Below, piece after piece: positions 11,483-45,557 of a stretch of DNA of 55,418 nt. Numbering within the stretch: position 1 is the first letter of the stretch; each line of letters begins with the position of its first letter. The position numbers and the translations under genes are program-made. Where the stretch lies: the NCBI GenBank assembly GCA_046758085.1, contig JBHHZP010000002.1, forward strand, positions 1 to 55,418. The letters run 5' to 3'. The notes beneath the pieces were generated by a model, which searched no databases, was not told the DNA's origin, and was given only the letters and a program-made list of their open reading frames with translations. Source of the DNA: Acidiferrobacterales bacterium (GTDB lineage: Bacteria; Pseudomonadota; Gammaproteobacteria; Acidiferrobacterales; SPGG2).

Positions 11483-11494
11483 GAGAGCAGAGGC

Positions 11495-12721: not shown

Positions 12722-14191
12722 ATGACTGGTGATTGGTGGATGATCTGGCCAGGCAACGCGGCGTTGTCTGTCCTGCTGCTTTATATTGGCGCTTTGCTCT
12801 TTCTCTATCCGGCGCGACGGCCTCTGCATGGGGTTATTCGCTCCACGACCCGCGCCATCAGCGGCCCGTTACGCCTGGGCGCACGCTGGCTGATGTCGAC
12901 AGCGGAGGAGCTGCGCGCTCGCAACAAGGTGGTACTGTTGTCCCACGGGAAAGAGGAGATCACGCAGGGAATCGAGCGTGAGTTCGAACGTGTGACGGCG
13001 GTGGTTCAGCGCGATCTGCATGATTATCCGGTGCTGCAACGCAAGCTCATGGGCGAGATTACGCGCATCGAGGAAGACTACCAAAAATGCGGAGAGGTAC
13101 CGCCGACGCCCCCAGAATGGACCAAGGCAGTGGCCGCCGTTGCCAAGATCGCGCCAACCGCCGACGGATTGGTGCAAAAGATCCTCGGCGACATCGGCCA
13201 TTCCATCGAGAAAATTCAGGAAAGGGCCATCGTCGAGTACCGCAAGTCCTATGAGGAGCGGCATAAAATTCTGAAAGGGTTTATGCCGTTCTGGCGCTCG
13301 CTTAACCAGACGCTTACCCAGGTGGACCGCAATCTGACGGGCCTGCAGGAAAGCGCATCGAGAATCGACGCGCAGATGGAAAAGTACGAGCAGATCACTG
13401 CGAGCTCGGAGAAGGCTGAGCACGCATTGACCTCCTCGGCGACGACACAGTTCGTAATTGCAAGTGTGGTGCTGGCGATTGCCTTCGGTGGTGCCTTCGT
13501 CAATTACAAGCTGATCGCCCTGCCGATGTCGGCGATGGTCGCCAACGACTTCATCACTGACACCTTGCGGGCGTCGGATATCGCCGCGTTGGTGATCATC
13601 TTCGTCGAGGCAAGCATGGGGTTGTTCCTGATGGAATCGTTGCGTATTACGCACTTGTTTCCTCGTATCAATAACTTGCAGGACAAGATGCGCCGGCGAT
13701 TCATGTGGGTCGCGTTTTCGATCCTGCTCACACTTGCATTCGTCGAGGTCGCGCTCGCCGTGCTGCGTGATGTGATTGTAGCCGCCGGCATAGAGCTGAC
13801 ACGCGATCTTGCCGGGGCGGACGCGGCCGCGGCAGAGGCAGGGATGGTCGAGAAGATCCCTACCGTCGGGCAGATGATTCTCGGTTTTATTCTGCCGTTC
13901 GCGCTGGTCTTCGTGGCGATACCGCTGGAGTACTTTATCAACTCTGCGCGTACGGTTGTGGGCGTGGCGATCGTACTAGCCATTCGCGCCCTGGCGTTTG
14001 CACTGCGGGTGGCGGGTAATATCGTCAAGCAACTCGGTAACCTGCTGGTCAACCTCTACGATGTGCTGATATTCGTGCCGCTGTTGATCGAGCGATTTAT
14101 CAGATCCATGCGCGGGGGGCAGGAAAACGTGAACTTCGCGCATTCCGGCGAGATCACTTCTTTTCCCGCAAAGGGCAGAGCAAGCGCTTGA
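12722..14191 (+). CDS. hypothetical membrane protein (1 TM + ~210-aa coiled-coil-like region + ~6 TM)
   Basis: Long ORF with a clear TM/soluble/TM layout. ATG 12722 is preceded by GGGGGTAAG; the ORF opens at TTG 12710. No family recognised. Confidence 0.7.
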   Translation: MTGDWWMIWPGNAALSVLLLYIGALLFLYPARRPLHGVIRSTTRAISGPLRLGARWLMSTAEELRARNKVVLLSHGKEEITQGIEREFERVTAVVQRDLHDYPVLQRKLMGEITRIEEDYQKCGEVPPTPPEWTKAVAAVAKIAPTADGLVQKILGDIGHSIEKIQERAIVEYRKSYEERHKILKGFMPFWRSLNQTLTQVDRNLTGLQESASRIDAQMEKYEQITASSEKAEHALTSSATTQFVIASVVLAIAFGGAFVNYKLIALPMSAMVANDFITDTLRASDIAALVIIFVEASMGLFLMESLRITHLFPRINNLQDKMRRRFMWVAFSILLTLAFVEVALAVLRDVIVAAGIELTRDLAGADAAAAEAGMVEKIPTVGQMILGFILPFALVFVAIPLEYFINSARTVVGVAIVLAIRALAFALRVAGNIVKQLGNLLVNLYDVLIFVPLLIERFIRSMRGGQENVNFAHSGEITSFPAKGRASA

Positions 14192-27252: not shown

Positions 27253-27622
27253 GATGTCCTCGCTTGGCGCCGAGCGCCGGGATGGCCCATGCGTCAAAGT
27301 CCCTTGTGCACGTTGCGGCCAGTTGACCAAAAGAGTAGTCAAGATCTGTGCCAATGTGCTGCTCAGGCGGAAAAATCAGGAAAAACCAGGCAATTTCTGC
27401 TTGTTCAAACGCCATACAGAGTCTGCGAGAGTCAATTGGCGCCCAGTCCTGGCGCGCTGAACGGCACGAAATCGTCGCTGGACGGCGCGCGCGGAGCTGC
27501 GGGTCCGGGATACCGCTGGCGGCTGGGAAAGAGGCCGTTCGCGCCGCTGACGCACTACCTGGACGCGCGTACAATCAGGCCCGTCCCCGGATGACGGGGG
27601 GCTCTTGCCGCGCGCACACAAG

Positions 27623-28243
27623 ATGACAACGAAGCCCGAGCTCCTGGTAACGGTATTTTCCGATTACATTTGCCCGTTCTGTTATATCGGTTCTGTGCGG
27701 CTCGATGCCTTGCGCGAGCAGTTCGCCTTGAAAGTCAACTGGGTGGCGCTTGAGATCCATCCGGACAATCCCTCACAAGGGCGACCCGTAGAAGAGCTGG
27801 GTTATGCGCCGGAGCAGTGGCAGCAGATGATGGATGCGCTTTACCGGATGGCGCGGGAGGAGGGCGTGCATATCGCCGAGCGCAGATTTACGACAAACTC
27901 GCACAAGGCATTGCTGTTGGCCGAGGCTGCTAAAGAGGAGGGCAAGGATATCTTTTATCGCCTGCATAACCGCTTGTTCGAGGCCTACTTCGGTGAGCGC
28001 CAGAATATCGGTGATGCCGATGTTCTGCGCGCCCTGGCGCGCGAGAGCGGCGTGCCCGATGGCACGGTAGCACGCGCGTGGAGGAAGGAACGTTACGAGC
28101 GGCGGCTAAAGACCAATCTTGTGGCTGCGGCGAAACTGCACGTGACAGCTACGCCCACGTACGTGATCGGCAAGCGCCTTCTGGTCGGCGCGGTGCCGGC
28201 AACGGTCTTACGCGACGCTGCAAGGCACGCTCAGAAGGGCTAG
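27623..28243 (+). CDS. DsbA-family thiol oxidoreductase (FrnE-like)
   Basis: VTVFSDYICPFCYIG CxxC motif, C-terminal VTATPTYVIG. Confidence 0.8.
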   Translation: MTTKPELLVTVFSDYICPFCYIGSVRLDALREQFALKVNWVALEIHPDNPSQGRPVEELGYAPEQWQQMMDALYRMAREEGVHIAERRFTTNSHKALLLAEAAKEEGKDIFYRLHNRLFEAYFGERQNIGDADVLRALARESGVPDGTVARAWRKERYERRLKTNLVAAAKLHVTATPTYVIGKRLLVGAVPATVLRDAARHAQKG

Positions 28244-30730: not shown

Positions 30731-30793
30731 AGGATGCAAAATATTTTATGCGTCACTCAGTAAATTTTAGAACCATGAGATCACGCTGTGGAA

Positions 30794-31936
30794 ATGAAAC
30801 GTAATCCGACCCGAGCCGTTGGCATCGGTTCGGTCACCATCGGCAACGGCAACCCGATCGCGGTGCAGAGCATGTGTGCGACGCGTACTCAGAATGTCGA
30901 TGCGACAGTGGCGCAAATAAACGAGCTGGTCACGGCCGGCGCCGACATAATTCGCATTGCCGTGGATAACCGCAGGGACGTGGCGGCGCTTAGCCATATT
31001 CGCGCGCAGGTACCGGCTAATCTGACGGTCGACCTCCAGGAGAGCTATCGATTGGCGGGCGATGCTGCGCCACATGTCAACAAGATCCGCTATAATCCCG
31101 GACACCTGTACCACCACGAACGCAAGAAACCCTGGCAGGACAAAGTCAGATTCCTGGTCGATGCCGCCGGTGAACATGACTGCGCACTGCGTGTCGGCGT
31201 CAACTGTGGCTCTGTCGATCCAGACAAGGCACAACGGTACGCGGCCGACGATTCGATCTCGCCTATGCTGGAGAGCGCGCTGGAGCACTGCGAGTTGCTC
31301 GACAAACTCGGTTTCACACGCTTCTGTGTCTCGCTTAAGGACTCGGATCCGGCAAAGGTAATCGAAGCGAACAAGCGTTTTGCCGAGGCGCGCCCCGACG
31401 TACCGTTGCACCTGGGCGTGACCGAGGCTGGGCTCCCGCCGGACGGCATCATCAAGACACGCATTGCGTTTGAGCAGCTTATCAGTCGTGGTATCGGCGA
31501 TACTATCCGCGTCTCGCTGACCGTGCCCAACCATCGGAAAGGTGAGGAGATCAGGGCCGGTCGCGAGATCCTGGCGGATATCGCCGCGGGGCGTGTTCGT
31601 AGCGTGGTGGATTACGGCAAGGACACGTTGAACATTATTAGTTGTCCAAGTTGTTCGCGGGTCGAAAACGAGGCCTTCATTGATCTCGCCCAGCAAGTCA
31701 AGGAAATGACGCAATATGCGAACCCGTATGCGCTCACTATCGCGGTCATGGGCTGTCGCGTGAACGGCCCGGGGGAAACCGACGATGCTGACCTGGGCCT
31801 GTGGTGTGGCCCAAAACTCGTGAATCTCAAACGCGGAAGCGAGCCCTTGGGTGCCTACCCGTACGACGAGATCCTTCCCCGGTTGAAGCAGGAACTCGAT
31901 GCCCTGATCGCGAAAAAGACCGCACACAGTGCTTGA
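30794..31936 (+). CDS. ispG: 4-hydroxy-3-methylbut-2-en-1-yl diphosphate synthase
   Basis: [56 protein letters not shown]. Confidence 0.95.
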
Positions 31937-32175
31937 GTCTACCGTCAACTCCCGCTATGCCGTTGCGGCGTGCGCAAAGGAAGCGAACGGCACGCAAGCA
32001 ACGGGCTAACGCGCACTTCACTTTCCATCATTCGCAGTAATAGCGGTAATACCCGGGTGCCGTTGTCCGGTCCCTATATAACGGGGCCGCGGTGGCAAAG
32101 GAGATCTCTCGCCGCAAGGCGGGCAGGGATGACTAGATTCAGGAGGAAGCATTTTTGATAACTAACGGATCTACG

Positions 32176-32829
32176 ATGGGGGGTATCCCGTCGACCTCGG
32201 TGAAAAGGTGGGTCGCATTGGAACTTGGGCTTTTGCTGCTCTTGACCCCGCTGTTCTTGTACTTTGCCCCCCGCGGTATGGGTCTTTATGCTACGGCCGC
32301 AATCGCGTTTGTGTTGTACGTTGTACTTACCGCGAAGTATACCCGCGACCGGATCTGGGGACCCACGGACAGACCGCGATCCAAACGGCTGCGCTGGTCG
32401 GCCATCACGCTTACCGTTCTGACCGTCCCGCCGCTACTGGCTTTTTTTGCCTGGGGCGCCTGGCAGGGCCACCAGGTCGTGTTCATGAACCTGCTGCTGG
32501 CGCTGGCGCTATATCTGCCCTGGGCGTTGTTACAGCAGACGATCTTTCAGTTTTATCTGCTGGGGCGACTACGCGTATTGCTGCCCTTGTCCCCTTTTGT
32601 CCTGGCGGCGGTCAACGGCGTCGCGTTCGGGCTGGTGCATCTGCCTTATCTGCCGTTGATGCTGCTCGCGATGGTGGCCGGCGTTTTCTGGAGCTACTCC
32701 TATCTGCGTGACCGGGTTGTGTTGCCGATCGCGATATCGCACGCCTTGTTGGGAACGACGTTCTACTATGCCGTCGTTGGGCGTGATTTGCTCGGCGACT
32801 GGTTGGCTATCATGAACGCCGCCGTGTGA
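32176..32829 (+). CDS. CPBP (CAAX protease)-like intramembrane protein with substituted catalytic motif
   Basis: Multi-TM protein. LLQQTIFQFYLLGRL sits where the EExxxR motif is expected. FGLVH and ISHALLG motifs are present. Confidence 0.6.
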   Translation: MGGIPSTSVKRWVALELGLLLLLTPLFLYFAPRGMGLYATAAIAFVLYVVLTAKYTRDRIWGPTDRPRSKRLRWSAITLTVLTVPPLLAFFAWGAWQGHQVVFMNLLLALALYLPWALLQQTIFQFYLLGRLRVLLPLSPFVLAAVNGVAFGLVHLPYLPLMLLAMVAGVFWSYSYLRDRVVLPIAISHALLGTTFYYAVVGRDLLGDWLAIMNAAV

Positions 32830-32856
32830 AGCAGGCGGCATGCGCGGGCTTGCGTC

Positions 32857-34761
32857 TTAGGCGGTTTCGGCGGCAATCGCCTTGGGGACGATCTCGGGGC
32901 GGAACCGCTGTTGAATAGACCGCAGTATGCCGGCAGCATCGAGTCCGGCCTCCGCCAGCATCTCCTCGCGTGTCCCGGTCTCGATCAAGCTGTCGGGCAA
33001 CCCCAGATTCAATACCGGCACCAGCTTCGAGTGTGCCGCCAGGCATTCGTTCACGGCACCGCCCGCGCCGCCTGGGACGACATTGTCCTCAATCGTGACA
33101 AGTCCAGCATGCGTGTCCGCGAGCTGGAGGACCAATTCCTCATCCAGCGGTTTGACGAAACGCATATTGATCACCGTTGCATCGAGTTCCTCGGCGGCCT
33201 CCATTGCCGGGGCGACCATCGCGCCAAACGCCAGCACTGCGATCTCCTTGCCGTTGCGGCGCGGCTCGGCCTTGCCGATCGGCAATGTCTTCATGGTTTT
33301 CTTGACGGCGACACCGGGGCCTTTGCCACGTGGATAACGTACCGCTGCCGGCTGATTGAGCTGGAAGCCGGTATAGAGCATCTGCCGGCATTCGTTCTCA
33401 TCGGCCGGAGCCATGATCACCATCCCGGGCAGGCAACGCAGATAGCTCAAATCGTAACTGCCATTGTGGGTCGCGCCATCGGGTCCGACTACGCCGGCGC
33501 GATCGATGGCGAACAGCACTGGCAAATCCTGCACCATCACGTCGTGGATCAGCTGATCGTAGGCGCGCTGCAGGAAGGTAGAGTAGATTGCCACCACCGG
33601 CTTCAGACCGTCCGCTGCCACGCCGGCGGCAAACGTGACGCTGTGTTGCTCGGCTATACCGACATCGAAATAGCGATCTGGGTACTGTTTCTGGAACTGC
33701 ACCAGACCCGATCCTTCGCACATCGCCGGTGTGATTCCGATCAAGCGCTCATCGCGTCTGGCCATGTCGCACAGCCATTCGCCAAACACCTGCGTGTAGG
33801 TCGGCCCCCCCTTGGACTTCGAAGGCACGATACCGACATTGGGATCAAACGGGGAGACACCGTGGTATTTCACCGGATCCGCCTCGGCAAGCGCATAGCC
33901 TTTGCCCTTGCGCGTGACCACGTGCAGCAGCCGCGGTCCTTGCAACGAACGCAGGTTCTTGAGCGTTTTCACCAGGGTCGGCAGATCGTGGCCATCGATC
34001 GGTCCAAAGTAGTCGAAGCCCAGCTCTTCGAAAAACGTCCCGGGAACGACCATACCCTTCATATGCAACGAGGTACGGTGCGCAAGCTCCCACACGGGTG
34101 GAATGTGGCGCAGCACCTTGTCGCCGCTCTCACGCATGGTCCGGTAAAACTTGCCGGAGAGTACGCGCGCCAGATACTTGGACAGGGCGGCCACATTAGG
34201 GGAGATAGACATGTCGTTGTGGTTCAGCACCACGAGCACATCTGATTTGAGGTCGCCCGCGTGATCGAGCGCCTCGTAGGCCAGGCCTGCCGTCATGCCG
34301 CCATCACCGATGATGGCGACTGCCTTACGGTCACTGCCCTCGCGCGCTGCCGCCACGGCCATGCCCAAGGCCGCACTGATGGAAGTGCTGGAGTGGCCTG
34401 CGCCGAATGCGTCATACGGGCTTTCGCTACGACGCAGGAACGGCGCCAGGCCGTCCTTCTGGCGAATGGTGCTCATGCGATCGCGCCGTCCCGTCAGGAT
34501 TTTGTGCGGATAAGCCTGGTGGCCCACATCCCACACCAGCCGGTCGTCCGGCGTGTTGAAGACGTAGTGCAGCGCGATCGTCAGCTCGATCGTACCGAGC
34601 CCGGCGCCGAGGTGTCCGCCGCATTGCGCTATTGAATGAATCAGGTAATCACGCACCTCCTTGGCGAGCGGCTCGAGCTCGGATTCCGGCAACCGGCGCA
34701 GGTCCTCCGGCAGGTCTATGGACTCGAGGATCGTGTAGGCGGTTTGGCGGCTCATGTCCAT
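32857..34761 (-). CDS. dxs: 1-deoxy-D-xylulose-5-phosphate synthase
   Basis: [64 protein letters not shown]. Confidence 0.95.
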
Positions 34762-35627
34762 GATATCAGATGGATGTAGGGGTTATACGCGAGCGGCGCA
34801 CGATTAAGACTCGCGGAACCAATGCACAGCGCGCCTTGTTTGCCTGCAGAACAGCTAACGTGCGAGAGCAGTTCCCGAAATCTGTCTGACGGTCGTTGAC
34901 CCGCCGGTGTCCAGTTTTCCTCACCGCTTCCTCCTAGCCTTGGCCCTGTCCCCGGTTCGAGTAATCTTCTATGTTAGGAATTAGAAGTATTACAGATCTT
35001 GCTGGGTAGTGCCACGAAGCGCGTGGCTTTTGTCCCCCGGGCGATGCCACTCTCAGCGCCGCGGGGCAGGCCGCCCCGAACTCGCCACCGCGACCGGCGA
35101 ATAGCCGGCTCGCCGCGCAAAGAATGTCGTCTAATCTATAGGACCGCCAAATACCCTGCTCTATTTCCAGCCGGGCGCCCGGGCGTCATCCTCGGGCAGT
35201 CAACGGATCTCACACGCGGTCGAGCAAGGTCTGTGGCGCCGTACATTCGCGTGAAGCGGCGAAGCTATTTTCCATAAAAAAAGTATGTGTTTTGTCTACC
35301 TGCCACAGGTTGCTACAAGTGTTGGAATCGTGGAACGCACGCGCATCAGGCGTGTCATTCATACCAATGCGTGCATGAGCGCACATCCGTGCGACCCACG
35401 GGCCGGCGACGAGGGGCGCTGTGCCGCGCGAGCAAGATGGCTTATCGGCGTTAGCGGCTAACCTGGCAGCTTGCGTCCCGGGCACTGGACATTTCGTTCA
35501 CCGATGTGTACGTTCGATTTGCCCGGACGCACGAGTACGGCGTTCGCGCGATGTGACGCTCGCTATACTTGCTGAATTCGTGGAAACCGCTTCAATCCGA
35601 CCATAAAAAGGAATCTGTCATACATCC

Positions 35628-36752
35628 ATGGGTGTACCACTAATTCAACAATACCGGGTGGGTCGCTATATTCTCGCTCAGAAGTTGCGCGGCGTGCGCC
35701 GCTACCCGCTCGTGCTCATGCTGGAACCGCTGTTTCAGTGCAACCTGGCCTGCGCGGGATGCGGGAAGATCGATTACCCTAAGCCGATTCTGCAAAAGCG
35801 CTTGAGCGTGGAGGAGTGCCTGGCGGCAGTCGATGAGTGCGGGGCGCCGATCGTGTCCATACCCGGCGGTGAGCCGCTCATCCACAAAGGAATCACGCAA
35901 ATCGTCGAGGGTATCATCGCCCGCAAGAAGTTCGTGTACCTGTGCACCAATGCCTTGCTGCTGAAGCGGCGAATCGATGAATTTACACCCTCGCCATACC
36001 TGACGTTCTCGGTCCATCTCGATGGCAACCGCGACCGCCACGATGCATCGGTATGCCGCCACGGGGTGTTCGACAAGGTGATTGAGGTCGTAAAGCTGGC
36101 GCTCGGTAAAGGCTTTCGCGTGACATTGAATTGTACGTTGTTCCAGGGCGAGTCGGCAGAGGAAATTGCGGAGTTTCTGGATTATGCGCGCGACCTCGGC
36201 GTCGAAGGCGTGACCATCTCCCCGGGCTACAGTTACGAGCACGCGCCGCAGCAGGATGTTTTTCTGCAGCGTGCCGGTAGCAAGCAGCTCTTCCGTGACA
36301 TTTTCAAGCGTGGCAAGGGCCGTAAATGGCGGTTTAATCAGTCGGCGCTGTTTCTGGATTTCCTTGCCGGAAACCAGACCTACGAATGCACCCCGTGGGG
36401 TAACCCCACGCGCAATATCTTTGGCTGGCAAAAGCCGTGTTATCTCTTGGTCGATGAGGGCTATACGTCAAGCTTCAAGGAACTCATCGAGCACACCGAC
36501 TGGGAGCGCTACGGCACCGGGCGCCATCCCAAATGCGCGAACTGCATGGTGCACTGTGGCTACGAGCCAACTGCTGTCAACGATACCTTTGCGCATCCGT
36601 TAAAGGCGCTGAAGATATTCCTGCGCGGACCGCGCACCGAGGGACCGATGGCACCGGAGCTGCCAATCACCTACCCGGACCCACCGCCGGGAGCGGCCAT
36701 CAAGTTTGACAGCAAAGACGGCGAATCCGCAGGCGAGGAACGCGCCGCTTAG
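35628..36752 (+). CDS. hpnH: adenosyl-hopene transferase (radical SAM)
   Basis: YPLVLMLEPLFQCNLACAGCGKIDYP radical-SAM CxxxCxxC motif. Length and context are hopanoid-typical. Confidence 0.85.
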   Translation: MGVPLIQQYRVGRYILAQKLRGVRRYPLVLMLEPLFQCNLACAGCGKIDYPKPILQKRLSVEECLAAVDECGAPIVSIPGGEPLIHKGITQIVEGIIARKKFVYLCTNALLLKRRIDEFTPSPYLTFSVHLDGNRDRHDASVCRHGVFDKVIEVVKLALGKGFRVTLNCTLFQGESAEEIAEFLDYARDLGVEGVTISPGYSYEHAPQQDVFLQRAGSKQLFRDIFKRGKGRKWRFNQSALFLDFLAGNQTYECTPWGNPTRNIFGWQKPCYLLVDEGYTSSFKELIEHTDWERYGTGRHPKCANCMVHCGYEPTAVNDTFAHPLKALKIFLRGPRTEGPMAPELPITYPDPPPGAAIKFDSKDGESAGEERAA

Positions 36753-37892
36753 ATGGCTTGGCTATTCCTGGCCCTCCCCGGGGCCATCGTGTGGGTTTCC
36801 ATTCTGATCCTCCCGTGGCGCCCATGGCGGGTGCGCGAGCTGTTGGACGCCGAGTCTCCGACACCGAACGCCGATCTCGGCGATGTCACCGTGCTCATCC
36901 CCGCCCGCAACGAGGCTGCGTTGATCGGCCAAGCGCTTGCTGCGCTCGATGCACAGGGGCAAAACCTCAGGATTGTGCTCGTGGACGATGAATCTAGCGA
37001 TGGCACGAGTGAGGCCGCACGCGCCGCGGCTGGGCACGGCCTGTGTGTCGTGAACGGGCGGCCTTTACCTGCCGGGTGGACCGGCAAGCTGTGGGCGCTG
37101 GAGCAGGGGCGGGTGCACGCGAGCCGCCCGTTCACTCTGTTGATCGACGCAGACATCGCCTTGCAGCCGGGCATCCTCGTGCGGTTGCGAGACAAGATGG
37201 CGCATGATGGCTTGGGGCTCGCGTCCTTGATGGCGGCGCTGCGCATGAAAACGACGTGGGAGAAACTGCTAATGCCCGCGTTCGTGTATTTCTTCAAGCT
37301 GCTTTATCCCTTTCGACTGTCCAACGACCCGCGCCGGCACAGGGTCGCAGCGGCCGCCGGCGGCTGCGTGCTGTTGCACACACAAGTCCTCGACGAGCTC
37401 GGCGGATTTGGCGCGCTGCGAGATGCGCTTATCGATGATTGTGCACTTGCACGACAGGTCAAAGCGCGCGGCTACAAGACCTGGGTGGGCCTGAGCCATT
37501 CGGTGCACAGTGTTCGGGCCTACGACGATCTCGGCGCGATCTGGAACATGGTGGCCCGTTCAGCCTTCACGCAACTGCGCTACTCGATCGGCTTGCTGCT
37601 GGGTTGCACGACACTCTTCGCCGCAGCATTCTGGCTGCCGCTGGGTGGCCTGCTGGCGCCTAGCCTTTCGGCACGGACGTTATCGGCATTGGCGCTAGGG
37701 GCGATGATGGCGAGCTTTCTGCCGACCCTGAAGTTCTACCGGCGATCGCCACTGTGGGCGCTCGCGTTGCCAGTTACCGCCACGCTTTATCTCGCCATGA
37801 CGTGGACCTCGGCGCTGCGCTATTGGCACGGACGGGGTTCTCAATGGAAAGGGCGCGTCTACGGTAAAGACTTGGGATCACGGGCCGGCTGA
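36753..37892 (+). CDS. family-2 glycosyltransferase, hopanoid-associated (HpnB-like)
   Basis: VTVLIPARNE, VLVDDESSDGT, PLPAGWTGKLWALEQG, with TM segments at both ends. Starts one nt after the hpnH stop. Confidence 0.75.
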   Translation: MAWLFLALPGAIVWVSILILPWRPWRVRELLDAESPTPNADLGDVTVLIPARNEAALIGQALAALDAQGQNLRIVLVDDESSDGTSEAARAAAGHGLCVVNGRPLPAGWTGKLWALEQGRVHASRPFTLLIDADIALQPGILVRLRDKMAHDGLGLASLMAALRMKTTWEKLLMPAFVYFFKLLYPFRLSNDPRRHRVAAAAGGCVLLHTQVLDELGGFGALRDALIDDCALARQVKARGYKTWVGLSHSVHSVRAYDDLGAIWNMVARSAFTQLRYSIGLLLGCTTLFAAAFWLPLGGLLAPSLSARTLSALALGAMMASFLPTLKFYRRSPLWALALPVTATLYLAMTWTSALRYWHGRGSQWKGRVYGKDLGSRAG

Positions 37893-37997
37893 CGTGGGCA
37901 TGAACGCGGTTCGTCGTCCGGGGAATGTCTTTTGTCGGATAGGGATCTTTGTGGCGGCACTTTCGCAGGCTTGTAAGGATTGGAATTACTGACAGGT

Positions 37998-38012
37998 CTG
38001 TATGTCATACAG
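37998..38012. promoter_or_regulatory. operator-like palindrome CTGTATG-T-CATACAG
   Basis: Perfect 7-bp arms in an AT-rich stretch, about 100 nt upstream of hydrolase paralogue 1. Confidence 0.4.
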
Positions 38013-38113
38013 TAAAATAGATCGAAGTTCCTGAAAATCTAATAACTTAACGCTGGTTGTAACGGCCGGGCGGATTTCCGGTTGGCGGTCTTCAAATAAG
38101 AGGAGTTGAAAAC

Positions 38114-39151
38114 GTGTTACCGGTACCAAAACGTTTGGTGAGGTTTTTGTTAGCCGCATTGCTGGCGGGTTGGGGCGGCAGTTTGTCGCTTGCCCAGGCG
38201 ACCGACACTGCGCAGCTCGCATCGCTGGCGCCGTCTCAGCTGCACCTAGGTTTCGACTACGAGAAGTTCATCATCAATCCGAATTCTTACATAGACCGGG
38301 AGCGCGAGACCAAGCACTACATCGTACAGTCCCTGTCTTTTCCCTCCATCGGTGACAACGGTCAGGAAGGCAATCTCGTCACTGCACTGTACTACCAGAG
38401 CAAGCGGCCGGGCAAGAAAAAGCTGATTGTGGTCCTGCCTATCTGGGGTACCCATACCTATCCGTCGCGCAAGATCACCGAGAGCCTGATGCATTACAGC
38501 GATGGGGAGATGAACATCTTGCGCATACTGGGCAAGAACTATCTCTTCGACTGGGACACCATGAGCGCGATATCGAGCGAGCAGGAGCTTATCGCCGTGT
38601 CCCGGCAAATGGTCGAGCGCGTGCGCACGCACGTCAAGGACATCCGCCGCGCCGTCGATTGGGCCGAGTCTCAACCGGATGTCGATCCGGGCCGCATCGG
38701 TCTCATCGGATTCAGCCTGGCTGCGACCGTCGCAAGCCTAGTGGTGGAAAACGAACCGCGGATCGGAGCGGGGGTTCTGGCGATGGGTGGCGCCAATATC
38801 AACGAGATGTTTGCCACCTGCTTTGGCCGCGCGGAAGAAACACGTGAGGTCATCACCAAGCGCCTGGGCTGGACGCGAGAGACCTTCGAGCGCAAGCTTG
38901 CGCAACCGCTGGCACCGATCAACCCGGTGAGTTTTGCCGGTCAGGCCAACCCGGACCGGATCATCATGTTTGATGCGAGGTACGACACCTGCATGCCCAG
39001 GACCAGCCGGGAAGCGCTGTGGCAGGCGCTGGGTCAGCCGCAACGCATCACCTGGCCCTATAATCACAAGATGGCCTTTCTCACCATGACGTTTCTGGGC
39101 GGGAACACTATGCGGCGCAAGATCTATCAGTTCCTGGACGAGACGCTCTAG
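38114..39151 (+). CDS. exported alpha/beta-hydrolase-fold protein, paralogue 1
   Basis: GTG start with AGGAG 8 nt upstream. Signal-like N-terminus. GFSLA nucleophile-elbow-like motif, with later DARYDTC and YNHKM. Strongly similar to the ORF at 40474-41562. Confidence 0.8.
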   Translation: MLPVPKRLVRFLLAALLAGWGGSLSLAQATDTAQLASLAPSQLHLGFDYEKFIINPNSYIDRERETKHYIVQSLSFPSIGDNGQEGNLVTALYYQSKRPGKKKLIVVLPIWGTHTYPSRKITESLMHYSDGEMNILRILGKNYLFDWDTMSAISSEQELIAVSRQMVERVRTHVKDIRRAVDWAESQPDVDPGRIGLIGFSLAATVASLVVENEPRIGAGVLAMGGANINEMFATCFGRAEETREVITKRLGWTRETFERKLAQPLAPINPVSFAGQANPDRIIMFDARYDTCMPRTSREALWQALGQPQRITWPYNHKMAFLTMTFLGGNTMRRKIYQFLDETL

Positions 39152-39213
39152 CGGATGCTGAGACCGGATGCGCTCGCCTTGGCCCGCGCGCCGGTGACAG
39201 TGATTGTGTTACG

Positions 39214-40305
39214 ATGCAAAAGCCAGACACAAAAGCAGAAAGCGCGCGCGCCGACGAACAATATCAACGGCACGTCCTCCAGGGTGTCTCCCGCACCTTC
39301 GCCCTGACGATCCCGCAGCTGCCTCCCGGCCTGCGCCGGGTCGTGGGTAACGCGTACCTGCTGTGTCGCATCGCGGACACGATTGAAGACGAGCCCGCGC
39401 TTAGCGCCGAGCAGAAGCGTCGCTTCTCCCAACAGTTTATCGATGCCGTCGACGCCAAGCTGTCCGCCGAGCGTTTTGCCTCCGAGCTGTCCCTCCTGCT
39501 TACCGAAAGCACGCTTCCAGCAGAACGCGAATTGATCGAGAACACGCCGCGCGTGCTGCGCTTGACCCACAGCTTTACTGCCAACCAGCGCGATATACTC
39601 GCTCGCGCGGTGGCCATCATGGCCAAGGGCATGTCGGTGTTCCAGGCGAATAAAGACATCGATGGGCTCAAGGATCTGCCCCAGCTAGACAGCTACTGTT
39701 ACTACGTCGCCGGGGTAGTCGGTGAGATGTTGACCGAGCTTTTTTGCGATTACTCGTGCGAGATCGACCGAAACCGGGATGCGATGATGAAGCTGGCCGT
39801 GTCTTTTGGTCAGGGGTTGCAGATGACCAACATCCTCAAGGACATCTGGGAAGACCGCATGCGCGGGGCATGCTGGTTACCGCAGGATGTGTTCAAGCAG
39901 GCGCGCTTCGACCTGAAAGATCTGTCGAAGGACGAGCATGGCGAGTCCTTCGAGGAGGGGCTGGAGCAGTTGATCGGTATCGCGCGCACACACCTCGAGA
40001 ACGCGTTGTCCTACACTTTAATGATTCCGCGCAGCGAAAAGGGCATCCGGCGTTTTTGCCTGTGGGCGTTGGGCATGGCGGTGCTTACCCTGCGAAAGAT
40101 CAACCGCAACCGCGATTTTACGACGGGCAATGAAGTGAAGATCTCGCGCCGCAGCGTGCGCGCGACGATCGCGGCGACCAATATGCTGGTGAGTAACGAT
40201 CGGCTGTTGAAGCTTTTGTTCGATGTCACCACGCACGGATTGCCGCCATCGTCTCCCCGCCCGATCCCCGAGTCGCGCCGCTTCCGCCCGTACTCGATCA
40301 ACTAG
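39214..40305 (+). CDS. sqs: squalene synthase (single-enzyme Sqs type)
   Basis: VSRTFALTIPQLP, YLLCRIADTIEDE (DTxED), YCYYVAGVVGEMLTELF, GQGLQMTNILKDIWEDRMRGACWLPQDVF. Confidence 0.8.
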   Translation: MQKPDTKAESARADEQYQRHVLQGVSRTFALTIPQLPPGLRRVVGNAYLLCRIADTIEDEPALSAEQKRRFSQQFIDAVDAKLSAERFASELSLLLTESTLPAERELIENTPRVLRLTHSFTANQRDILARAVAIMAKGMSVFQANKDIDGLKDLPQLDSYCYYVAGVVGEMLTELFCDYSCEIDRNRDAMMKLAVSFGQGLQMTNILKDIWEDRMRGACWLPQDVFKQARFDLKDLSKDEHGESFEEGLEQLIGIARTHLENALSYTLMIPRSEKGIRRFCLWALGMAVLTLRKINRNRDFTTGNEVKISRRSVRATIAATNMLVSNDRLLKLLFDVTTHGLPPSSPRPIPESRRFRPYSIN

Positions 40306-40473
40306 TCCATTAAGGAGCTTGCCCCTGCGCGCATGCATGACTGTCTTGACCGGGATCGTCGCCGCGCCCCGTGACGCGCACCCCGCCCATGCCGGTGCGG
40401 GGCGCAAGATTCTGCACCGCAGCAAAAGGCCTGCTACACTTCTTGCACGTAACATAACTCCTTAACAAACTCG

Positions 40474-41562
40474 GTGGCTTGGACCTTTTTAAGCGTGGCT
40501 GCTGCCAAAAAATTAGTTGACACCGGGCCTGCTCGATGCCGTTTCGCGATGCTCGTGATTGCCGTGTGGCTGGGGTTCGGCCAGGGGGGGCTGACCATGG
40601 CCGAGGCGGGCACGCGCTCGCCGATCGCGGCGGAAGACCCGGCCCTGCTCGGCTTTGACTTCGATTATGAACGATCGGCCATCCAGCCGACCGAGCGCAT
40701 CGATGGTGGGCGCGAGACGCAAGCCTACCGGGTCCGAGCGCTGGCGATTCCATCGATCGGTGAGAACGGTCAGCCCGGGAACTTGGTGTCGGCGCAATAC
40801 TACGAAAGCAAGCTCCCAGGTCGACACAGACTCGTCATCGTCTTACCGATATGGGGCGCACAGAAATTCCCGCCGAAAAACATGGCCAAGGCATTGCTGC
40901 GACACAGCAACGGTGATATGAACGTCTTGCGGCTTTTGGGCGAGAACCCGCTTATCGACTGGGCGGGAATACAGGCCGCGTCCAGCGAAAGAGAGCTCGT
41001 GGAGATCATGCAGCGCATGGTCGAACGCGTGCGGACTCATGTCATCGACATTCGCCGCTGGATCGACTGGGCCGAGAGCGAACCGGGGGTTGATCCGGGG
41101 CGAATTGGACTGGTCGGTTTCAGTATGGGCGCGAGCGTTGGCAGCCTCGTGTTGGCGAACGAACCGCGCTTTGCCGCCGGCGCGCTGGCCCTGGGCGGGG
41201 CGAACCCGCATGAAGTATTGTCGACCTGTTTTATTCGAAAGATCAAAAAAACCCGCAAGGCACTGCTGTCGCGCTTTCACTGGAGCCCACAGACCTTGGA
41301 GCAAAAAATGAAGCAACCGCTGGCACCGATCAATCCCGCCCGGTTCACGGGCACGGTCAATCCGCAGCGAATCATTATAGTGGAGGCGGGCCGCGACACT
41401 TGCATTCCTAAGAGTGGCCGTGACGCACTCTGGCACGCCATGGGGAAGCCAAGACGTGTGATTTGGCCCATCAATCACAATGTGGGTTTTCTGACCATCA
41501 CCCCCTTGGGCGGCAATATCATGGCGCGCAGGATCTTCGATTTCCTGGATCAGGTGCTGTGA
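40474..41562 (+). CDS. exported alpha/beta-hydrolase-fold protein, paralogue 2
   Basis: GFSMG (GxSxG), EAGRDTC, INHNV. Shares long blocks with paralogue 1: MVERVRTHV, DWAES.P.VDPGRIGL, QPLAPINP. Start uncertain (GTG 40474 or ATG 40549). Confidence 0.8.
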   Translation: MAWTFLSVAAAKKLVDTGPARCRFAMLVIAVWLGFGQGGLTMAEAGTRSPIAAEDPALLGFDFDYERSAIQPTERIDGGRETQAYRVRALAIPSIGENGQPGNLVSAQYYESKLPGRHRLVIVLPIWGAQKFPPKNMAKALLRHSNGDMNVLRLLGENPLIDWAGIQAASSERELVEIMQRMVERVRTHVIDIRRWIDWAESEPGVDPGRIGLVGFSMGASVGSLVLANEPRFAAGALALGGANPHEVLSTCFIRKIKKTRKALLSRFHWSPQTLEQKMKQPLAPINPARFTGTVNPQRIIIVEAGRDTCIPKSGRDALWHAMGKPRRVIWPINHNVGFLTITPLGGNIMARRIFDFLDQVL

Positions 41563-41755
41563 CGCGGCGATTTCCAGTCACCGGCTACGCGGGCTTAGCA
41601 CCGAAACCAGCACCGTCGCACGTAGAGCAGCAGCGAACACAATGTTAAAATCGCTAAGCCGCTGGTCCTCGCTCGTGGTACCCGGCAGCGCTATGCTGGG
41701 CGCCGGCATCAGGCGAATCGGGGTGCTCCAGCGCATTGAAGAGGCTACGGTATCC

Positions 41756-43738
41756 ATGTTAGATCGCAAATCGAAACAACCGGTTTCCTACCGGGATAAT
41801 TGGCGGCCGCACGACGTCCCCGAGACCCGGGGCGAGCGGATCGCTCGGATTCCCGATCGCGACCTGGCGCGGGCGATCGACTCGGCACGCGAAGCGTTGT
41901 TGGCGCTGCAACATGCCGAGGGCTACTGGTGCTTCGAGCTCGAGGCCGACTGCACGATTTCCGCCGAGTATATCTTGATGATGCACTTTATGGGCGAGAT
42001 CGACGTGGCGCTGCAGGCCAAGATCGCGGCGTACCTGCGCGACCGTCAAGACACCCATGGCGGGTGGTCGCTGTACCCGGGCGGTGACTTCGACCTCAGT
42101 GGCTCCGTCAAGGTGTACTATGCGTTGAAGCTCAGCGGCGATTCCCCTGAGGCGCCGCATATGCAGCGGGCGCGGGAAGCGATTCTCGGCCACGGTGGCG
42201 CCGCCTACAGCAACGTCTTTACTCGCATCACGTTGGCGTTGTTCGAGCAGATCCCTTGGCGTGGTGTTCCGTTCATACCGGTGGAGATCATGCTGCTGCC
42301 GCGCTGGTTTCCTTTTCATATCAGCAGGGTGTCGTACTGGTCGCGAACCGTGATGGTTCCGCTGACGATCATGTACAGCCTGAAGGCACGCGCGACGAAC
42401 CCGATCGGTGTCCGCATCGACGAGCTGTTCACGGTGCCGCCCGAGCAGGAACGAAATTATTTTCCGGTACGTTCACGACTTAATCACGTTTTGCTTGCGG
42501 TCGAGCGCAGCGCCCGCCGGCTTGAGCCCCTGATCCCCGGCTGGGTGCGGCGCCGAGCCATCAGGAAGGCGGAAGCCTGGATTATCCAACGGTTGAATGG
42601 CAAGGACGGGCTGGGGGCGATTTTTCCGGCAATGGTCAATGCCCACGAGGTGCTGGCGCTGCTGGGCTACCCGCCGGAGCATCCCTATCGTCGGACGACG
42701 AAGGCGGCGCTGCAAAAGCTCCTGGTGATCGGCGAGCGCTCGGCCTACTGTCAGCCCTGTGTCTCGCCGGTGTGGGATACGGGGCTGGCGTGTCTGGCGT
42801 TGCACGAAGCCAATGGCGGCGAGGCAACGCCCGAAACGCTGCGCGCGCTGGATTGGCTCAAATCCAAGCAGCTGCTCGATCAACCCGGGGACTGGAGCGA
42901 GTACCGGCCAAACCTTCGGCCGGGCGGATGGCCGTTTCAGTTTGGCAACGACCACTATCCCGATCTTGATGATACGGCGCTAGTGGCCTGGGTCATGCAC
43001 GAGACCGGAGATGAACGCTATCGCGAGTCGATCGACCGTGCGGCGGAATGGTTGTGCGGCATGCAGTCCAAGAACGGCGGCTTCGGTTCGTTCGATGCCG
43101 ACAACACTTATTATTACCTGAACGAAATTCCGTTTGCCGATCACGGCGCGTTGTTGGATCCGCCGACTGCCGATGTGAGCGCCCGTTGCGTCACTTTGTT
43201 CGGACGGTTGGGTAGGAGCGAGTATGCGGAATGCTTGCGCCGATGTTTGGACTATTTGCGCAAGGAACAAGAACAAGACGGCTCCTGGTTTGGACGCTGG
43301 GGCACGAACTACATCTACGGCACCTGGTCGGTCCTGATTGCGCTGGAACAAGTGGGTGAGCCCAAGATGCAGCCCTTCATTCGCCGCGCCGTCGAGTGGC
43401 TCAAGTGGATCCAGCAGCCCGACGGGGGCTGGGGGGAGACCAACGACTCCTACCTCTACCCGGATCAGGCCGGTAAGGCAGAGGCGAGCACCGCGTTTCA
43501 GACGGCATGGGCCATGCTCGCGTTGATGGCGGCCGGTGAAACACATTCATCCGAGGTCCGGCGCGGGGCCGACTTTCTATTGCGCACGCAGCAGGCGGAC
43601 GGTTTTTGGACTGACCCGGTGTTTACCTGTCCCGGATTTCCGCGGGTGTTTTATCTCAAATATCACGGATACCAGAAGTTCTTCCCGCTGTGGGCGCTTG
43701 CGCGCTATTACAACTCGCGAAAGCCGAAGGCACTTTGA
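41756..43738 (+). CDS. shc: squalene-hopene cyclase
   Basis: GYWCFELEADCTISAEYILMMHF, DLDDTA catalytic motif, multiple QW repeats (QSKNGGFGSF, EQEQDGSWFGRWG, QQPDGGWGE, QQADGFW). The ORF opens at 41642; the start is uncertain. Confidence 0.95.
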   Translation: MLDRKSKQPVSYRDNWRPHDVPETRGERIARIPDRDLARAIDSAREALLALQHAEGYWCFELEADCTISAEYILMMHFMGEIDVALQAKIAAYLRDRQDTHGGWSLYPGGDFDLSGSVKVYYALKLSGDSPEAPHMQRAREAILGHGGAAYSNVFTRITLALFEQIPWRGVPFIPVEIMLLPRWFPFHISRVSYWSRTVMVPLTIMYSLKARATNPIGVRIDELFTVPPEQERNYFPVRSRLNHVLLAVERSARRLEPLIPGWVRRRAIRKAEAWIIQRLNGKDGLGAIFPAMVNAHEVLALLGYPPEHPYRRTTKAALQKLLVIGERSAYCQPCVSPVWDTGLACLALHEANGGEATPETLRALDWLKSKQLLDQPGDWSEYRPNLRPGGWPFQFGNDHYPDLDDTALVAWVMHETGDERYRESIDRAAEWLCGMQSKNGGFGSFDADNTYYYLNEIPFADHGALLDPPTADVSARCVTLFGRLGRSEYAECLRRCLDYLRKEQEQDGSWFGRWGTNYIYGTWSVLIALEQVGEPKMQPFIRRAVEWLKWIQQPDGGWGETNDSYLYPDQAGKAEASTAFQTAWAMLALMAAGETHSSEVRRGADFLLRTQQADGFWTDPVFTCPGFPRVFYLKYHGYQKFFPLWALARYYNSRKPKAL

Positions 43739-44451
43739 CCCGTCTGGGCGTCGTCGTCGCACTGTCGGCGGAAGCACGTACCCTCCTGAACGAGCCAATC
43801 CAACCCGGTGGGCGTGCCGCGCTCGGCGATGGGTTCGTGCAGCTCTGCGGGATCGGAACCGCCCGTGCCCGCGATGCTGCCGGCGCACTGCTCGAAGCCG
43901 GAGCCACCGCCCTGCTGAGTTGGGGCACCTGCGGTGGGCTTGACATCGCGTTGACTGCCGGGAGTCTGGTTTTGCCGGAGACCGTCGTCTCCTCGGCGGG
44001 TGCGGTCTTCGGCGTCGAACCGGCCTGGCACCAGCGTGTTTCCCGCTGCCTGGCGCGGCATATCGCCTATAGCCACGGGCCGCTGGTAGAAAGTCGCTCG
44101 GTCTTGGGAAGACCGGCGGACAAGAGCGCGCTGTCGCGAGCCACTGGCGCAGTGGCGGTCGATATGGAGAGTGCCGCGGTGGCGGAGGTCGCGCGCGCCG
44201 CAGGCGTCCCGTTCCTGGTCGTTCGCGCCGTGCTCGACCCGGCCCAGCGCACAGTACCTGCCGGTATTCTGCGCGCCACCGACCCGTACGGGCGCGTACG
44301 TGGCTTGCCACTGCTTCAGGCCTTGCTCTGGCGCCCGCGCACGTGGGTCGATCTGTGGCGACTGCGTGCGGACCTGCGCGCGGCGCAGGCAACACTGGCC
44401 CGCGTCGCGCAGCTCGCGGGCCCCGGCCTGCGGGCTCAACAGGAAGTCTAG
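43735..44451 (+). CDS. hpnG: hopanoid-associated nucleosidase/phosphorylase
   Basis: PNP/UDP-family pattern: GVVVALSAEA, GIGTARA, VAVDMESAAVA, PFLVVRAV. TTG start overlaps the shc stop (TTGA); the ORF opens at 43690. Confidence 0.8.
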   Translation: MTRLGVVVALSAEARTLLNEPIQPGGRAALGDGFVQLCGIGTARARDAAGALLEAGATALLSWGTCGGLDIALTAGSLVLPETVVSSAGAVFGVEPAWHQRVSRCLARHIAYSHGPLVESRSVLGRPADKSALSRATGAVAVDMESAAVAEVARAAGVPFLVVRAVLDPAQRTVPAGILRATDPYGRVRGLPLLQALLWRPRTWVDLWRLRADLRAAQATLARVAQLAGPGLRAQQEV

Positions 44452-44478: not shown

Positions 44479-44560
44479 TTCTTGTATCTTGCAGCTGATT
44501 GTCTCTTGTATCTTGCCACTTGCATCTTGGATCTGATTTTTACTTGAATCTTGCCACTGT
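44479..44560. repeat. heptanucleotide-periodic CTTG array (hpnG-hpnA spacer)
   Basis: CTTG recurs at 7-nt steps: 44481/44488, then 44505/44512/44519/44526, then 44543/44550. Units such as ATCTTGC and ACTTGAA resemble the right arm at 7906-7933. Confidence 0.75.
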
Positions 44561-44564
44561 TTTT

Positions 44565-45557
44565 ATGAAAACTCTCGTCACAGGCGCGTCGGGTTTCATC
44601 GGCTCGGCGGTGGTACGCGGGCTGATCGCTGCTGGCCACGACGTGCGCGTGCTGCTTCGGGTGCAGAGCGATCGCGCAAATGTCACCGGCTTGCCGGTGG
44701 AGATCGTGACCGGCGATCTCACCGACAAGGTGTCGTTGGAGCGCGCACTCGCCGGCTGCCGGGCATTATTTCACGTGGCCGCGGACTACCGTATGTGGGT
44801 ACCCGACCCGGATCGGCTATACGCCATCAACGTGACCGGAACGCGCGACATCATGCAGGCCGCCATGACGGCCGGTGTGGAGCGTGTCGTCTATACGAGC
44901 AGCGTGGCGACCCTCGGCCTTCACACCAACGGTGCGCCGGCCGACGAAGATACGCCGGTAAGCCTGGCCGACATGGTCGGCCACTACAAGCGCTCGAAGT
45001 ACCTTGCCGAGGAAGAGGTCCGGCGCCTGGTACGTGCGGAGGGCCTGCCGGCCGTGATTGTGAATCCCTCGGTGCCGATCGGACCGCGTGACATCAAGCC
45101 CACGCCCACGGGGCGCATGATCGTGGAAACCATGTGCGGGCGCATGCCGGCCTATGTCGACACCGGACTGAACCTGGTGCACGTGGACGACGTTGCCACC
45201 GGCCACCTGCTGGCTTTCGAGCGTGCGCAGGTGGGCGAGCGTTACGTGCTCGGCGCGCAAAACATGACACTGAAACAAATCTTGGCCGAGATTGCCCGGC
45301 TTAGCGGCCGGCGCCCGCCGCGAATACGGTTGCCGCACGGCGTCATTCTGCCCATCGCTCATGTCGCCGAGGCCTGGGCGCGGATCACGGGCGCAGCCGA
45401 GCCGCGCGTTAGCGTCGACGGCGTTCGCCTGTCGAAAAAGACCATGTTCTTCTCGATCGAGAAGGCCAGGCGCGAGCTCGGCTTCGCCCCGCGGCCGGTG
45501 GGCGAAGCCCTGGCCGATGCCGTGCGCTGGTTTCGCGAGCACGGCTACTGCAACTGA
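44565..45557 (+). CDS. hpnA: hopanoid-associated NAD-dependent sugar epimerase/reductase
   Basis: MKTLVTGASGFIGSAVV Rossmann motif and a YxxxK site (YKRSKYLAE). Start at the internal ATG after the heptamer array. Confidence 0.85.
   Translation: MKTLVTGASGFIGSAVVRGLIAAGHDVRVLLRVQSDRANVTGLPVEIVTGDLTDKVSLERALAGCRALFHVAADYRMWVPDPDRLYAINVTGTRDIMQAAMTAGVERVVYTSSVATLGLHTNGAPADEDTPVSLADMVGHYKRSKYLAEEEVRRLVRAEGLPAVIVNPSVPIGPRDIKPTPTGRMIVETMCGRMPAYVDTGLNLVHVDDVATGHLLAFERAQVGERYVLGAQNMTLKQILAEIARLSGRRPPRIRLPHGVILPIAHVAEAWARITGAAEPRVSVDGVRLSKKTMFFSIEKARRELGFAPRPVGEALADAVRWFREHGYCN

Follow-up and report, generated by a model that had tools for sequence, protein, structure and literature searches.

Predicted exported alpha/beta-hydrolases in hopanoid loci of uncultured bacteria: the paralogous pair ABH1 and ABH2 of an Acidiferrobacterales genome

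What could two genes for alpha/beta-hydrolase-fold proteins be doing inside a hopanoid locus, one on either side of a squalene synthase-like gene? The question is raised by a stretch of 55,418 nucleotides (the window in what follows; contig JBHHZP010000002.1 of assembly GCA_046758085.1) from an uncultured Acidiferrobacterales gammaproteobacterium, where two open reading frames (ORFs) of the + strand, here called ABH1 (38114..39151, 345 aa) and ABH2 (40474..41562, 362 aa as listed), lie within the gene order hpnH-hpnB-ABH1-sqs-ABH2-shc-hpnG-hpnA. The answer proposed here, to which we would assign a probability of roughly 55%, is that ABH1 and ABH2 are functional paralogues of a family of exported Ser-Asp-His hydrolases and, as an esterase or transacylase, would act in the periplasm on an envelope lipid that derives from hopanoids or is associated with them. 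In its genomic position the family is coupled to genes for the synthesis and transport of extended (C35) hopanoids, namely hpnH, hpnB, shc, hpnM and hpnL; it is hopanoid-associated, not hopanoid-exclusive.

Linkage of the family to hopanoid genes

A profile search of 1.84 billion representative sequences delimits a small and discrete family, with 240 clusters (50% identity) at E <= 1e-30, which has been seen so far in uncultured Gammaproteobacteria and Acidobacteriota, together with some alphaproteobacterial members. A GTDB scan with a single genome for each species yielded 79 loci, the neighbours of which were assigned by tblastn with the window proteins and by curated models. The genes hpnH, shc, hpnB, hpnM, hpnL or hpnN lie within 10 kb of the family gene in 24 of these 79 loci, and the distances are short: hpnH is present in 20 of the 79, with a median gap of ~1.5 kb that never exceeds 2.7 kb; hpnB in 15, with a median gap of 294 bp, being the commonest immediate upstream neighbour of the family; shc in 13 (median ~1.4 kb); and hpnM in 6 (median 146 bp). 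The binomial tail for 24 of 79 is 7e-29 with a background of 1% and 5e-13 with one of 5%, relatedness among the loci being ignored. A separate scan of metagenome contigs, a set that overlaps in part with that of the metagenome-assembled genomes (MAGs), repeats the finding, with hpn genes at 16 of 67 loci, and at 15 of 33 where the flank is at least 3 kb long.

The linkage takes at least three forms in two phyla. In arrangement A, of the Acidiferrobacterales and other Gammaproteobacteria, the order is dxs(-), hpnH, hpnB, ABH, in some cases an AlkP-like gene, sqs, shc, hpnG and hpnA. In arrangement B, of Arenicellales-type genomes, hpnN and mevalonate-pathway genes are followed by hpnH, hpnB, hpnM and ABH, then by the gene of a small lipoprotein, which is on the other strand, and by hpnL; here HpnM scores 182 bits with TIGR03481 (cut-off 160) and HpnL 275 bits with TIGR03476 (cut-off 196), while HpnN, its gene cut by the edge of the locus, reaches 692 bits for a cut-off of 752. 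In arrangement E, of Acidobacteriota including Thermoanaerobaculia, hpnA, hpnH and shc share one strand and ABH is divergent from shc. Hopanoid-linked members fall on at least six deep branches of a neighbour-joining tree without branch support values. The homologues are, in other words, strongly enriched beside hpnH, hpnB, shc, hpnM and hpnL, as the original prediction, made from the window alone, had led one to expect, and a linkage repeated in this way across phyla is unlikely to be incidental.

Two further genes were noticed in these surveys. One, not present in the window, codes for a protein of the AlkP superfamily (~450 aa, with a signal peptide) and follows ABH directly, with a median gap of 96 bp, in 10 genome loci and three arrangements (it was seen at L002:11000-12352 and in loci L003-L005, L007, L020, L064, L071, L075, L080, L088-L092, L105 and L128); it has a weak match to Pfam Phosphodiest, and its best match in the PDB is the alkaline sphingomyelinase ENPP7 (E = 5.7e-4). 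Judged by its sequence it appears to be a second uncharacterised exported enzyme tied to hopanoid loci. The other codes for a lipoprotein of ~113-152 aa that matches no family and lies on the opposite strand between ABH and hpnL in the Arenicellales-type hopanoid loci (L036:8724-9137, L017:10930-11388, L040, L035, L075 and L106).

Fold, catalytic residues and export signals of the two proteins

In a BLASTP comparison, ABH1 and ABH2 share 176 of 344 positions (51%) with one gap and E = 3e-131, which confirms the two ORFs, with the coordinates and lengths given above, as the clear paralogues they had been taken for. The sequence motifs that had been listed as common to them are present in both, the C-terminal FLDxxL included, except for RDTC.P, which is found only in ABH2 (GRDTCIP), ABH1 having RYDTCMP; the motif common to the two around the catalytic acid is DTC.P. 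The residues of the triad could be located in each ORF and follow one another in the predicted linear order of Ser, Asp and His: S201 (38714-38716), D291 (38984-38986) and H318 (39065-39067) in ABH1, the cysteines of which are Cys236 and Cys293, and S217 (41122-41124), D308 (41395-41397) and H335 (41476-41478) in ABH2, with Cys252 and Cys310.

These residues are near-invariant across the family. Among 79 aligned sequences (ABH1, ABH2 and 77 genome-locus homologues), which extend down to ~35% identity, the nucleophilic Ser is kept in 79 of 79, the His in 78 and the Asp in 76. In the numbering of ABH2, Cys252 is kept in 76 of the 79 and Cys310, two residues past the Asp, in 75; of the four sequences lacking C310, three also lack C252, a joint loss that would fit a disulfide pair in an oxidising compartment. 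The nucleophile elbow reads G-F-S-x-[G/S/A], with G at the last position in 47 members, S in 28 and A in 4, so that the Ala of ABH1, which had been read as a possible sign of divergence, lies within the normal variation of the family.

The AlphaFold models, built from an alignment of 38 sequences, have a pLDDT of 88.3 and a pTM of 0.83 for ABH1 and of 87.0 and 0.81 for ABH2, with cores above 90, and both predict the alpha/beta-hydrolase fold that had been proposed. Ser201 of ABH1 lies between a strand (190-200) and a helix (202-213), and Ser217 of ABH2 between strand 206-216 and helix 218-229, each forming in the model the nucleophile elbow; the Asp follows the penultimate strand of the core and the His the last one (in ABH2, Asp308 after strand 300-305 and His335 after strand 327-331, with an equivalent disposition in ABH1). 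Behind the strand that follows the nucleophile helix, both models insert three helices as a lid, and the N-terminal 30-45 residues are modelled as a helix of low confidence with a disordered linker behind it, as would be expected of a signal peptide. A Foldseek comparison with the PDB gives matches to alpha/beta-hydrolases with probability 1.0, and 1458 entries at E <= 0.001, the best of which are acetyl-xylan esterases and cephalosporin-C deacetylases of the CE7 family (E ~1e-12, TM 0.55-0.69, identity 13-17%); given the number of alpha/beta-hydrolases that match, the likeness to CE7 is a similarity at the level of the fold.

By sequence, the two proteins exceed the cut-off of one generic model only, Pfam DLH (PF01738, cut-off 21), which matches ABH1 with 30.9 bits over model positions 3-132 and ABH2 with 28.0 bits over 56-135. 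These are partial alignments, of 130 and 80 positions in a model of 217, and on some sibling contigs the match is flagged as weak. No Hpn model (HpnA-HpnR) was matched by either protein in the NCBIfam scan, where lactonase, lasso-peptidase and PHA-depolymerase models gave sub-threshold scores of at most 30 bits; in sequence and profile searches of the PDB no characterised or solved close relative surfaced, the only matches, to lipases and esterases of a general kind (best E = 1.7e-6), being those of the nucleophile elbow.

As for the destination of these proteins, 62 of the 73 complete N-termini of the family have a lipobox Cys, 22-36 residues ahead of the first conserved motif, and none of them has Asp at position +2. 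According to the Lol sorting rule of Proteobacteria, a lipoprotein without Asp at +2 goes to the outer membrane, and it is there that the lipoprotein members are probably anchored in most lineages. The exceptions are mainly those of the window clade (ABH1, ABH2 and loci L001-L007), with a K/R-rich n-region, a hydrophobic core of 11-12 residues and a site of the signal peptidase I (SPase-I) type, AQA, AEA or AHA. In ABH1 the signal peptide would comprise residues 1-29 (38114-38200), with K6, R7 and R10, the core LVRFLLAALLA (Kyte-Doolittle 2.45) and cleavage between AQA and T; in ABH2, read from position 40495, it would have four K/R, the core FAMLVIAVWLG (2.50) and cleavage between AEA and G, ending at 40608. 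These calls are heuristic, based on the charge of the n-region, the hydrophobic core and the small-x-small motif, and to that extent both proteins have the Sec features that had been suspected in their N-termini, the lipoboxes supporting export throughout the family. It appears, then, that the lipobox has given way to a cleavable signal peptide of the ordinary kind in the Acidiferrobacterales clade of the window, and that ABH1 and ABH2 are probably soluble periplasmic enzymes.

The locus, its neighbours and the fate of the two copies

Every gene from hpnH to hpnA is on the + strand and its annotation rests on curated models (Pfam, NCBIfam), by which the gene context of the original prediction is upheld, the gene it called GT2 being hpnB. 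The locus begins with hpnH (35628..36752; TIGR03470, 561 bits, cut-off 225), whose product, the adenosyl-hopene transferase, carries out the first step towards extended C35 hopanoids, and continues with hpnB, for a hopene-associated glycosyltransferase of family GT2 (36753..37892; TIGR03469, 402 bits, cut-off 379), followed by ABH1. Then come a gene of the squalene/phytoene-synthase family (SQS_PSY), here called sqs-like (39214..40305; PF00494, 208 bits), for which the top NCBIfam model, squalene synthase TIGR01559, gives 131 bits, under its cut-off of 287, and ABH2. Downstream are shc, for the squalene-hopene cyclase (41642..43738; TIGR01507, 866 bits, cut-off 431), hpnG, for a hopanoid-associated phosphorylase/nucleosidase (43690..44451; TIGR03468, 197 bits, cut-off 187), and hpnA, for a hopanoid-associated sugar epimerase-like protein of the short-chain dehydrogenase/reductase (SDR) type (44499..45557; TIGR03466, 512 bits, cut-off 368), after which the order is DUF2238, recA, alaS and lysC. 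Homologues of hpnN, hpnM, hpnL, mla and the AlkP-like gene were looked for within the window and none was found.

Upstream of hpnH there is a flank of isoprenoid-precursor genes on mixed strands (30788..34761), with ispG (30788-31936, +, Pfam GcpE), a gene for an Rce1-like membrane protease (32155-32829, +, Pfam Rce1-like) and dxs (32857-34761, -, TIGR00204, 900 bits). The divergent intergenic region between dxs and hpnH (34762-35627) is unusually long, 866 bp, and contains no convincing ORF and no Rfam match; in the relatives, gene callers place spurious-looking ORFs of 50-75 aa there. A gene for a DsbA-like periplasmic thiol-disulfide oxidoreductase (27605-28243) lies ~10 kb upstream, in a synteny (dsbA, rtcA, ..., ispG, Rce1-like) that is kept in L080 and L082; it is noted here on account of the conserved Cys pair of the ABH family. 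On the sibling contig L083, shc (11148-13227) is called as two genes, of 436 and 247 aa, which is probably a frameshift or a sequencing error, because L084-L086 keep an intact gene of 698 aa.

Two of the genome loci raise a point of nomenclature. The MAGs of L001 (VRUB01000001.1) and L003 are labelled Nitrospira or Nitrospiraceae, though these loci are 90-95% identical to the window. The RecA of the window is 95-96% identical to that of Acidiferrobacterales MAGs, by which Nitrospira is rejected as the source organism, and the label is probably a case of mis-binning or mis-naming.

As regards the starts of the two genes, the GTG of ABH1 is preceded, 8 nt upstream, by an AGGAG ribosome-binding site, and that of ABH2 is probably not at 40474: a GTG in the same frame at 40495 is to be preferred, because the protein would then have 355 aa, which is the length of its orthologues P0001 and P0002 and of the products called on all the sibling contigs. 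The spacer between hpnB and ABH1 (37893-38113) is ~95% conserved across four relatives, while the flanking coding DNA has a lower nucleotide identity, of 85-90% between the window and L001. A consensus scan finds in it, on the + strand, a promoter-like site, CTGACA-18-TAAAAT (37989..38018, 10 of 12 matches), and between its hexamers a perfect palindrome, CTGTATG-T-CATACAG (37998-38012), which occurs once in the window and elsewhere only in the closest siblings. Together they may serve ABH1 and the genes downstream of it as internal promoter and operator. The palindrome was also considered as a LexA box, and rejected: its spacing is N7, not N8, and there is no canonical box in the window, not even near recA.

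Which of the two copies is the conserved one can be read from the relatives. Orthologues of ABH1, 60-69% identical, are placed after hpnB in L002-L007; wherever a genome locus has a full-length match to the family, ABH1 scores higher than ABH2 or about as high; and the single-copy orthologues found behind hpnB cluster with ABH1 in the neighbour-joining tree mentioned above, which has no branch support values. From this advantage in score and this grouping it follows that ABH1 is the conserved copy and ABH2 a divergent duplicate, so that the suggestion that ABH1 had diverged in function is not supported: it is the positional orthologue, and it is ABH2 that has diverged and has sometimes been lost. 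A second paralogue has been retained within the hopanoid/isoprenoid locus in two different places: orthologues of the ABH2 type, with 65-66% identity, lie directly upstream of shc-hpnG-hpnA in L081, another Acidiferrobacterales MAG, and in the metagenome contig L093, and in L080 and L082 a second paralogue is found between the Rce1-like gene and dxs. Both copies are intact in the sibling metagenome contigs L083-L086. Between the window and L084, the dN/dS ratio is 0.229 for ABH1 and 0.257 for ABH2, with 0.258 for shc, 0.254 for hpnG, 0.144 for sqs, 0.119 for hpnB and 0.052 for hpnH; the two hydrolase genes are under a purifying selection comparable to that of bona fide hpn genes.

The proposed role, its alternatives and the known systems

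If we accept the role proposed at the outset, hopanoids or hopanoid-derived glycolipids would first have to reach the periplasmic side of the envelope, where the serine nucleophile of the enzyme would cleave an ester or lactone bond, or transfer an acyl group, in a hopanoid derivative or in a lipid closely associated with hopanoids; this step would probably come downstream of the HpnB glycosyltransferase. The paralogy, the fold, the conserved triad positions, the export signals, the purifying selection and the genomic linkage are what the data show; the periplasmic location of ABH1 and ABH2, their catalytic activity and, above all, their substrate are what we infer from them. In this sense the family is a credible candidate for a step of hopanoid biology that is still missing in the periplasm. 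The pair formed by HpnI (GT2) and the deacetylase HpnK in the synthesis of bacteriohopanetetrol (BHT)-glucosamine offers a parallel by analogy. Some neighbours of the family gene away from the hpn genes (MMPL/HAE3, a TonB-dependent receptor, a PqiC-like lipoprotein and MlaFE) also belong to the transport of envelope lipids, which speaks for such a role.

A number of observations weigh against this role. The notion of a hopanoid-associated enzyme family stands as regards the recurrent linkage in two phyla, and not as regards exclusivity, for in about two thirds of the genome loci there is no hpn gene within 10 kb of the family gene. In the gammaproteobacterial group D the gene is found among housekeeping genes, with that of a LolC/E-like permease upstream and that of an FAD-linked oxidase downstream (a lactone chemistry could be read from the oxidase, speculatively, in a neighbourhood otherwise of housekeeping genes); an amidase gene precedes that of the family in the alphaproteobacterial members, and acs (acetyl-CoA synthetase) does so in some of the Acidobacteriota. 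Given these housekeeping, amidase and acs contexts, a hopanoid is not necessarily the substrate. The loci are, moreover, phylogenetically non-independent, so that the P value is secondary to the diversity of the arrangements, and all 79 (L001-L079) come from MAGs, none from a cultured isolate, a distribution which may explain why the family had gone unnoticed. In L001, the closest genome relative, a clean in-frame deletion of 630 bp (window 40732-41361) has removed residues 87-296 of ABH2, including the catalytic Ser (the region L001:12163-12930 matches window 40306-41641), and thus ABH2 is dispensable in at least one lineage. Finally, the closest solved folds in the Foldseek comparison are those of cytoplasmic sugar deacetylases, not of lipid enzymes, and the known pathway from diploptene to BHT is not known to require an esterase.

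Several of these contexts would be natural for a hydrolase of general envelope-lipid homeostasis, a phospholipase, lysophospholipase or lipid A deacylase of the periplasm or outer membrane that does not act on hopanoids and is co-located with hopanoid, Mla/MCE and Lol systems since all of them serve the lipid balance of the outer membrane. It would account for the LolC/E-like permease directly upstream in group D, for the adjacency to hpnM (MlaC-like) in the Arenicellales-type loci and for the lipoprotein anchors of most members. It would also account for a block found in about 9 loci of Thermoanaerobaculia (L027, L029, L038, L042, L054, L066, L077 and L114 among them), which comprises the genes for an unknown protein of 580 aa, an MMPL/HAE3 transporter, a TonB-dependent receptor, ABH, a lipoprotein of the PqiC/YmbA type, MlaF, MlaE and a rhomboid protein, and which, from its gene content, may be an export or import module for envelope lipids. 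(The MMPL neighbour was tried as HpnN and rejected, with 83 bits for a cut-off of 752; HAE3/MMPL fits it better.) The tightest and commonest neighbours of the family, however, are biosynthetic (hpnH, hpnB and shc) and not those of transport, the window has no homologue of mla, hpnM or hpnN, and there is no detectable similarity to the known lipid A deacylases or to PldA; we consider this general function unlikely, while granting it a real share of the probability.

The other two alternatives start from the fold. A carbohydrate esterase related to CE7 could deacetylate an exported glycan or peptidoglycan, the hopanoid linkage being incidental, and in its favour are the first place of the CE7 enzymes among the structural matches and the spacings of the triad, 91 residues from Ser to Asp and 27 from Asp to His, near the ~88 and ~29 of CE7. 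However, the sequence identity to CE7 is as low as noted above, Pfam AXE1 (PF05448) is not among the matches at E <= 0.01, 1458 other alpha/beta-hydrolases match as well at E <= 0.001, and the CE7 signatures (RGQ, GxSQG and HE) are not found in the family, which has GFSx[GSA] at the elbow and K, R or N after the His. With the hopanoid linkage repeated across phyla in addition, such an esterase seems improbable, and it would merge with the preferred role if the product of HpnB were a hopanoid glycoside. It is also conceivable that the hydrolase fold has been co-opted for binding, in a non-catalytic lipid-binding or adaptor lipoprotein of a hopanoid or lipid shuttle, which would suit a gene that adjoins the transport genes hpnM and hpnN and those of MMPL and TonB-dependent-receptor proteins. 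Pseudo-enzymes usually lose their catalytic triad, whereas here it is kept (Ser 79/79, Asp 76/79, His 78/79) down to the most distant members, which argues for catalysis and makes a pure adaptor very improbable indeed.

Returning to an esterase or transacylase of hopanoid-related lipids, a more ambitious version can be formulated, in which the family would be the catalytic component of a whole periplasmic arm of hopanoid biology. HpnB (GT2) would make a hopanoid- or polyprenyl-linked glycoside in the cytoplasm, HpnL, with its flippase-like domain, would flip it, and on the periplasmic side ABH would carry out an ester or lactone exchange independent of ATP, with the exported enzyme of the AlkP superfamily and the carriers HpnM and HpnN as its partners. 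It could, for example, make or cleave acyl or ester links between extended hopanoids and other envelope lipids, giving acylated bacteriohopanepolyols (BHPs) or hopanoid-lipid A-like conjugates. This version is rather doubtful; if true, it would mean a new class of hopanoid-modifying enzyme and would explain some of the orphan BHP structures of marine sediments.

Hopanoids are major lipids of bacterial membranes and among the most abundant molecular fossils, and many of the BHP structures found in the environment have no known biosynthetic enzyme. The family provides, in this context, a concrete and testable candidate for a step of hopanoid modification or trafficking after export in Gammaproteobacteria and Acidobacteriota of sediments, and draws attention to a set of envelope genes that occur with it: hpnB, hpnM, hpnL, the exported AlkP-like enzyme and the small lipoprotein. 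If the substrate were not a hopanoid, there would still be a new lipoprotein hydrolase tied to the lipid systems of the outer membrane.

Four known systems invite comparison. Most databases label these proteins as dienelactone hydrolases (DLH), with which they share the alpha/beta-hydrolase fold, the Pfam model being matched above its gathering cut-off over part of its length, and from which a hydrolysis of lactones or esters would be expected; the classical enzyme, ClcD, is small and cytoplasmic and has a Cys nucleophile, whereas in the ABH proteins the nucleophile is a Ser and there are, besides, a beta extension at the N-terminus, a lid of three helices, two conserved Cys and an export signal. 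With the CE7 esterases (3fvt, 1ods, 6fkx) they have in common an N-terminal extension, a helical insertion after beta-6 and a similar spacing of the triad. CE7 enzymes are cytoplasmic hexamers that act on small acetylated sugars; the ABH proteins differ in that they appear to be exported or anchored as lipoproteins, adjoin lipid genes and show the low identity and the lack of an AXE1 match mentioned above. The mycolyltransferases Ag85 and the proteins Chp1/Chp2 of mycobacteria are exported transacylases with an alpha/beta-hydrolase fold that work with MmpL lipid exporters, and the analogy, of an exported serine hydrolase that acts without ATP on an exported lipid beside an RND/MMPL transporter, could fit both the MMPL, TonB-dependent receptor and ABH block and the loci that run from hpnN to ABH, although there is no detectable sequence relationship and the organisms and lipids are others.

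The fourth comparison is with the accessory proteins HpnA, HpnB, HpnL, HpnM and HpnN, the genes of which, like ABH, ride inside the hpn clusters of only some hopanoid producers, and in many loci ABH stands directly between hpnB or hpnM and hpnL; it differs from them in its fold and chemistry, and in matching no Hpn model. The patchy distribution of the accessory genes has been read as an involvement in non-essential steps, and in the same survey of 2025 the function of hpnA, hpnB and hpnL is given as not established and that of hpnM as possibly transport (PMC12583986). That survey reports no further candidate genes near the hpn clusters of Alphaproteobacteria and does not note ABH (PMC12583986), and a survey of Acidobacteria lists no hydrolase (PMC5462960). 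In the papers that could be searched there is no precedent for a hydrolase, esterase or DLH encoded in a hopanoid cluster, in agreement with the earlier statement that the canonical hpn set contains no alpha/beta hydrolase. In summary, when set beside these systems, the fold and the chemistry of ABH1 and ABH2 are ordinary, and the new element is a discrete family of exported hydrolases embedded in the hopanoid loci of uncultured lineages.

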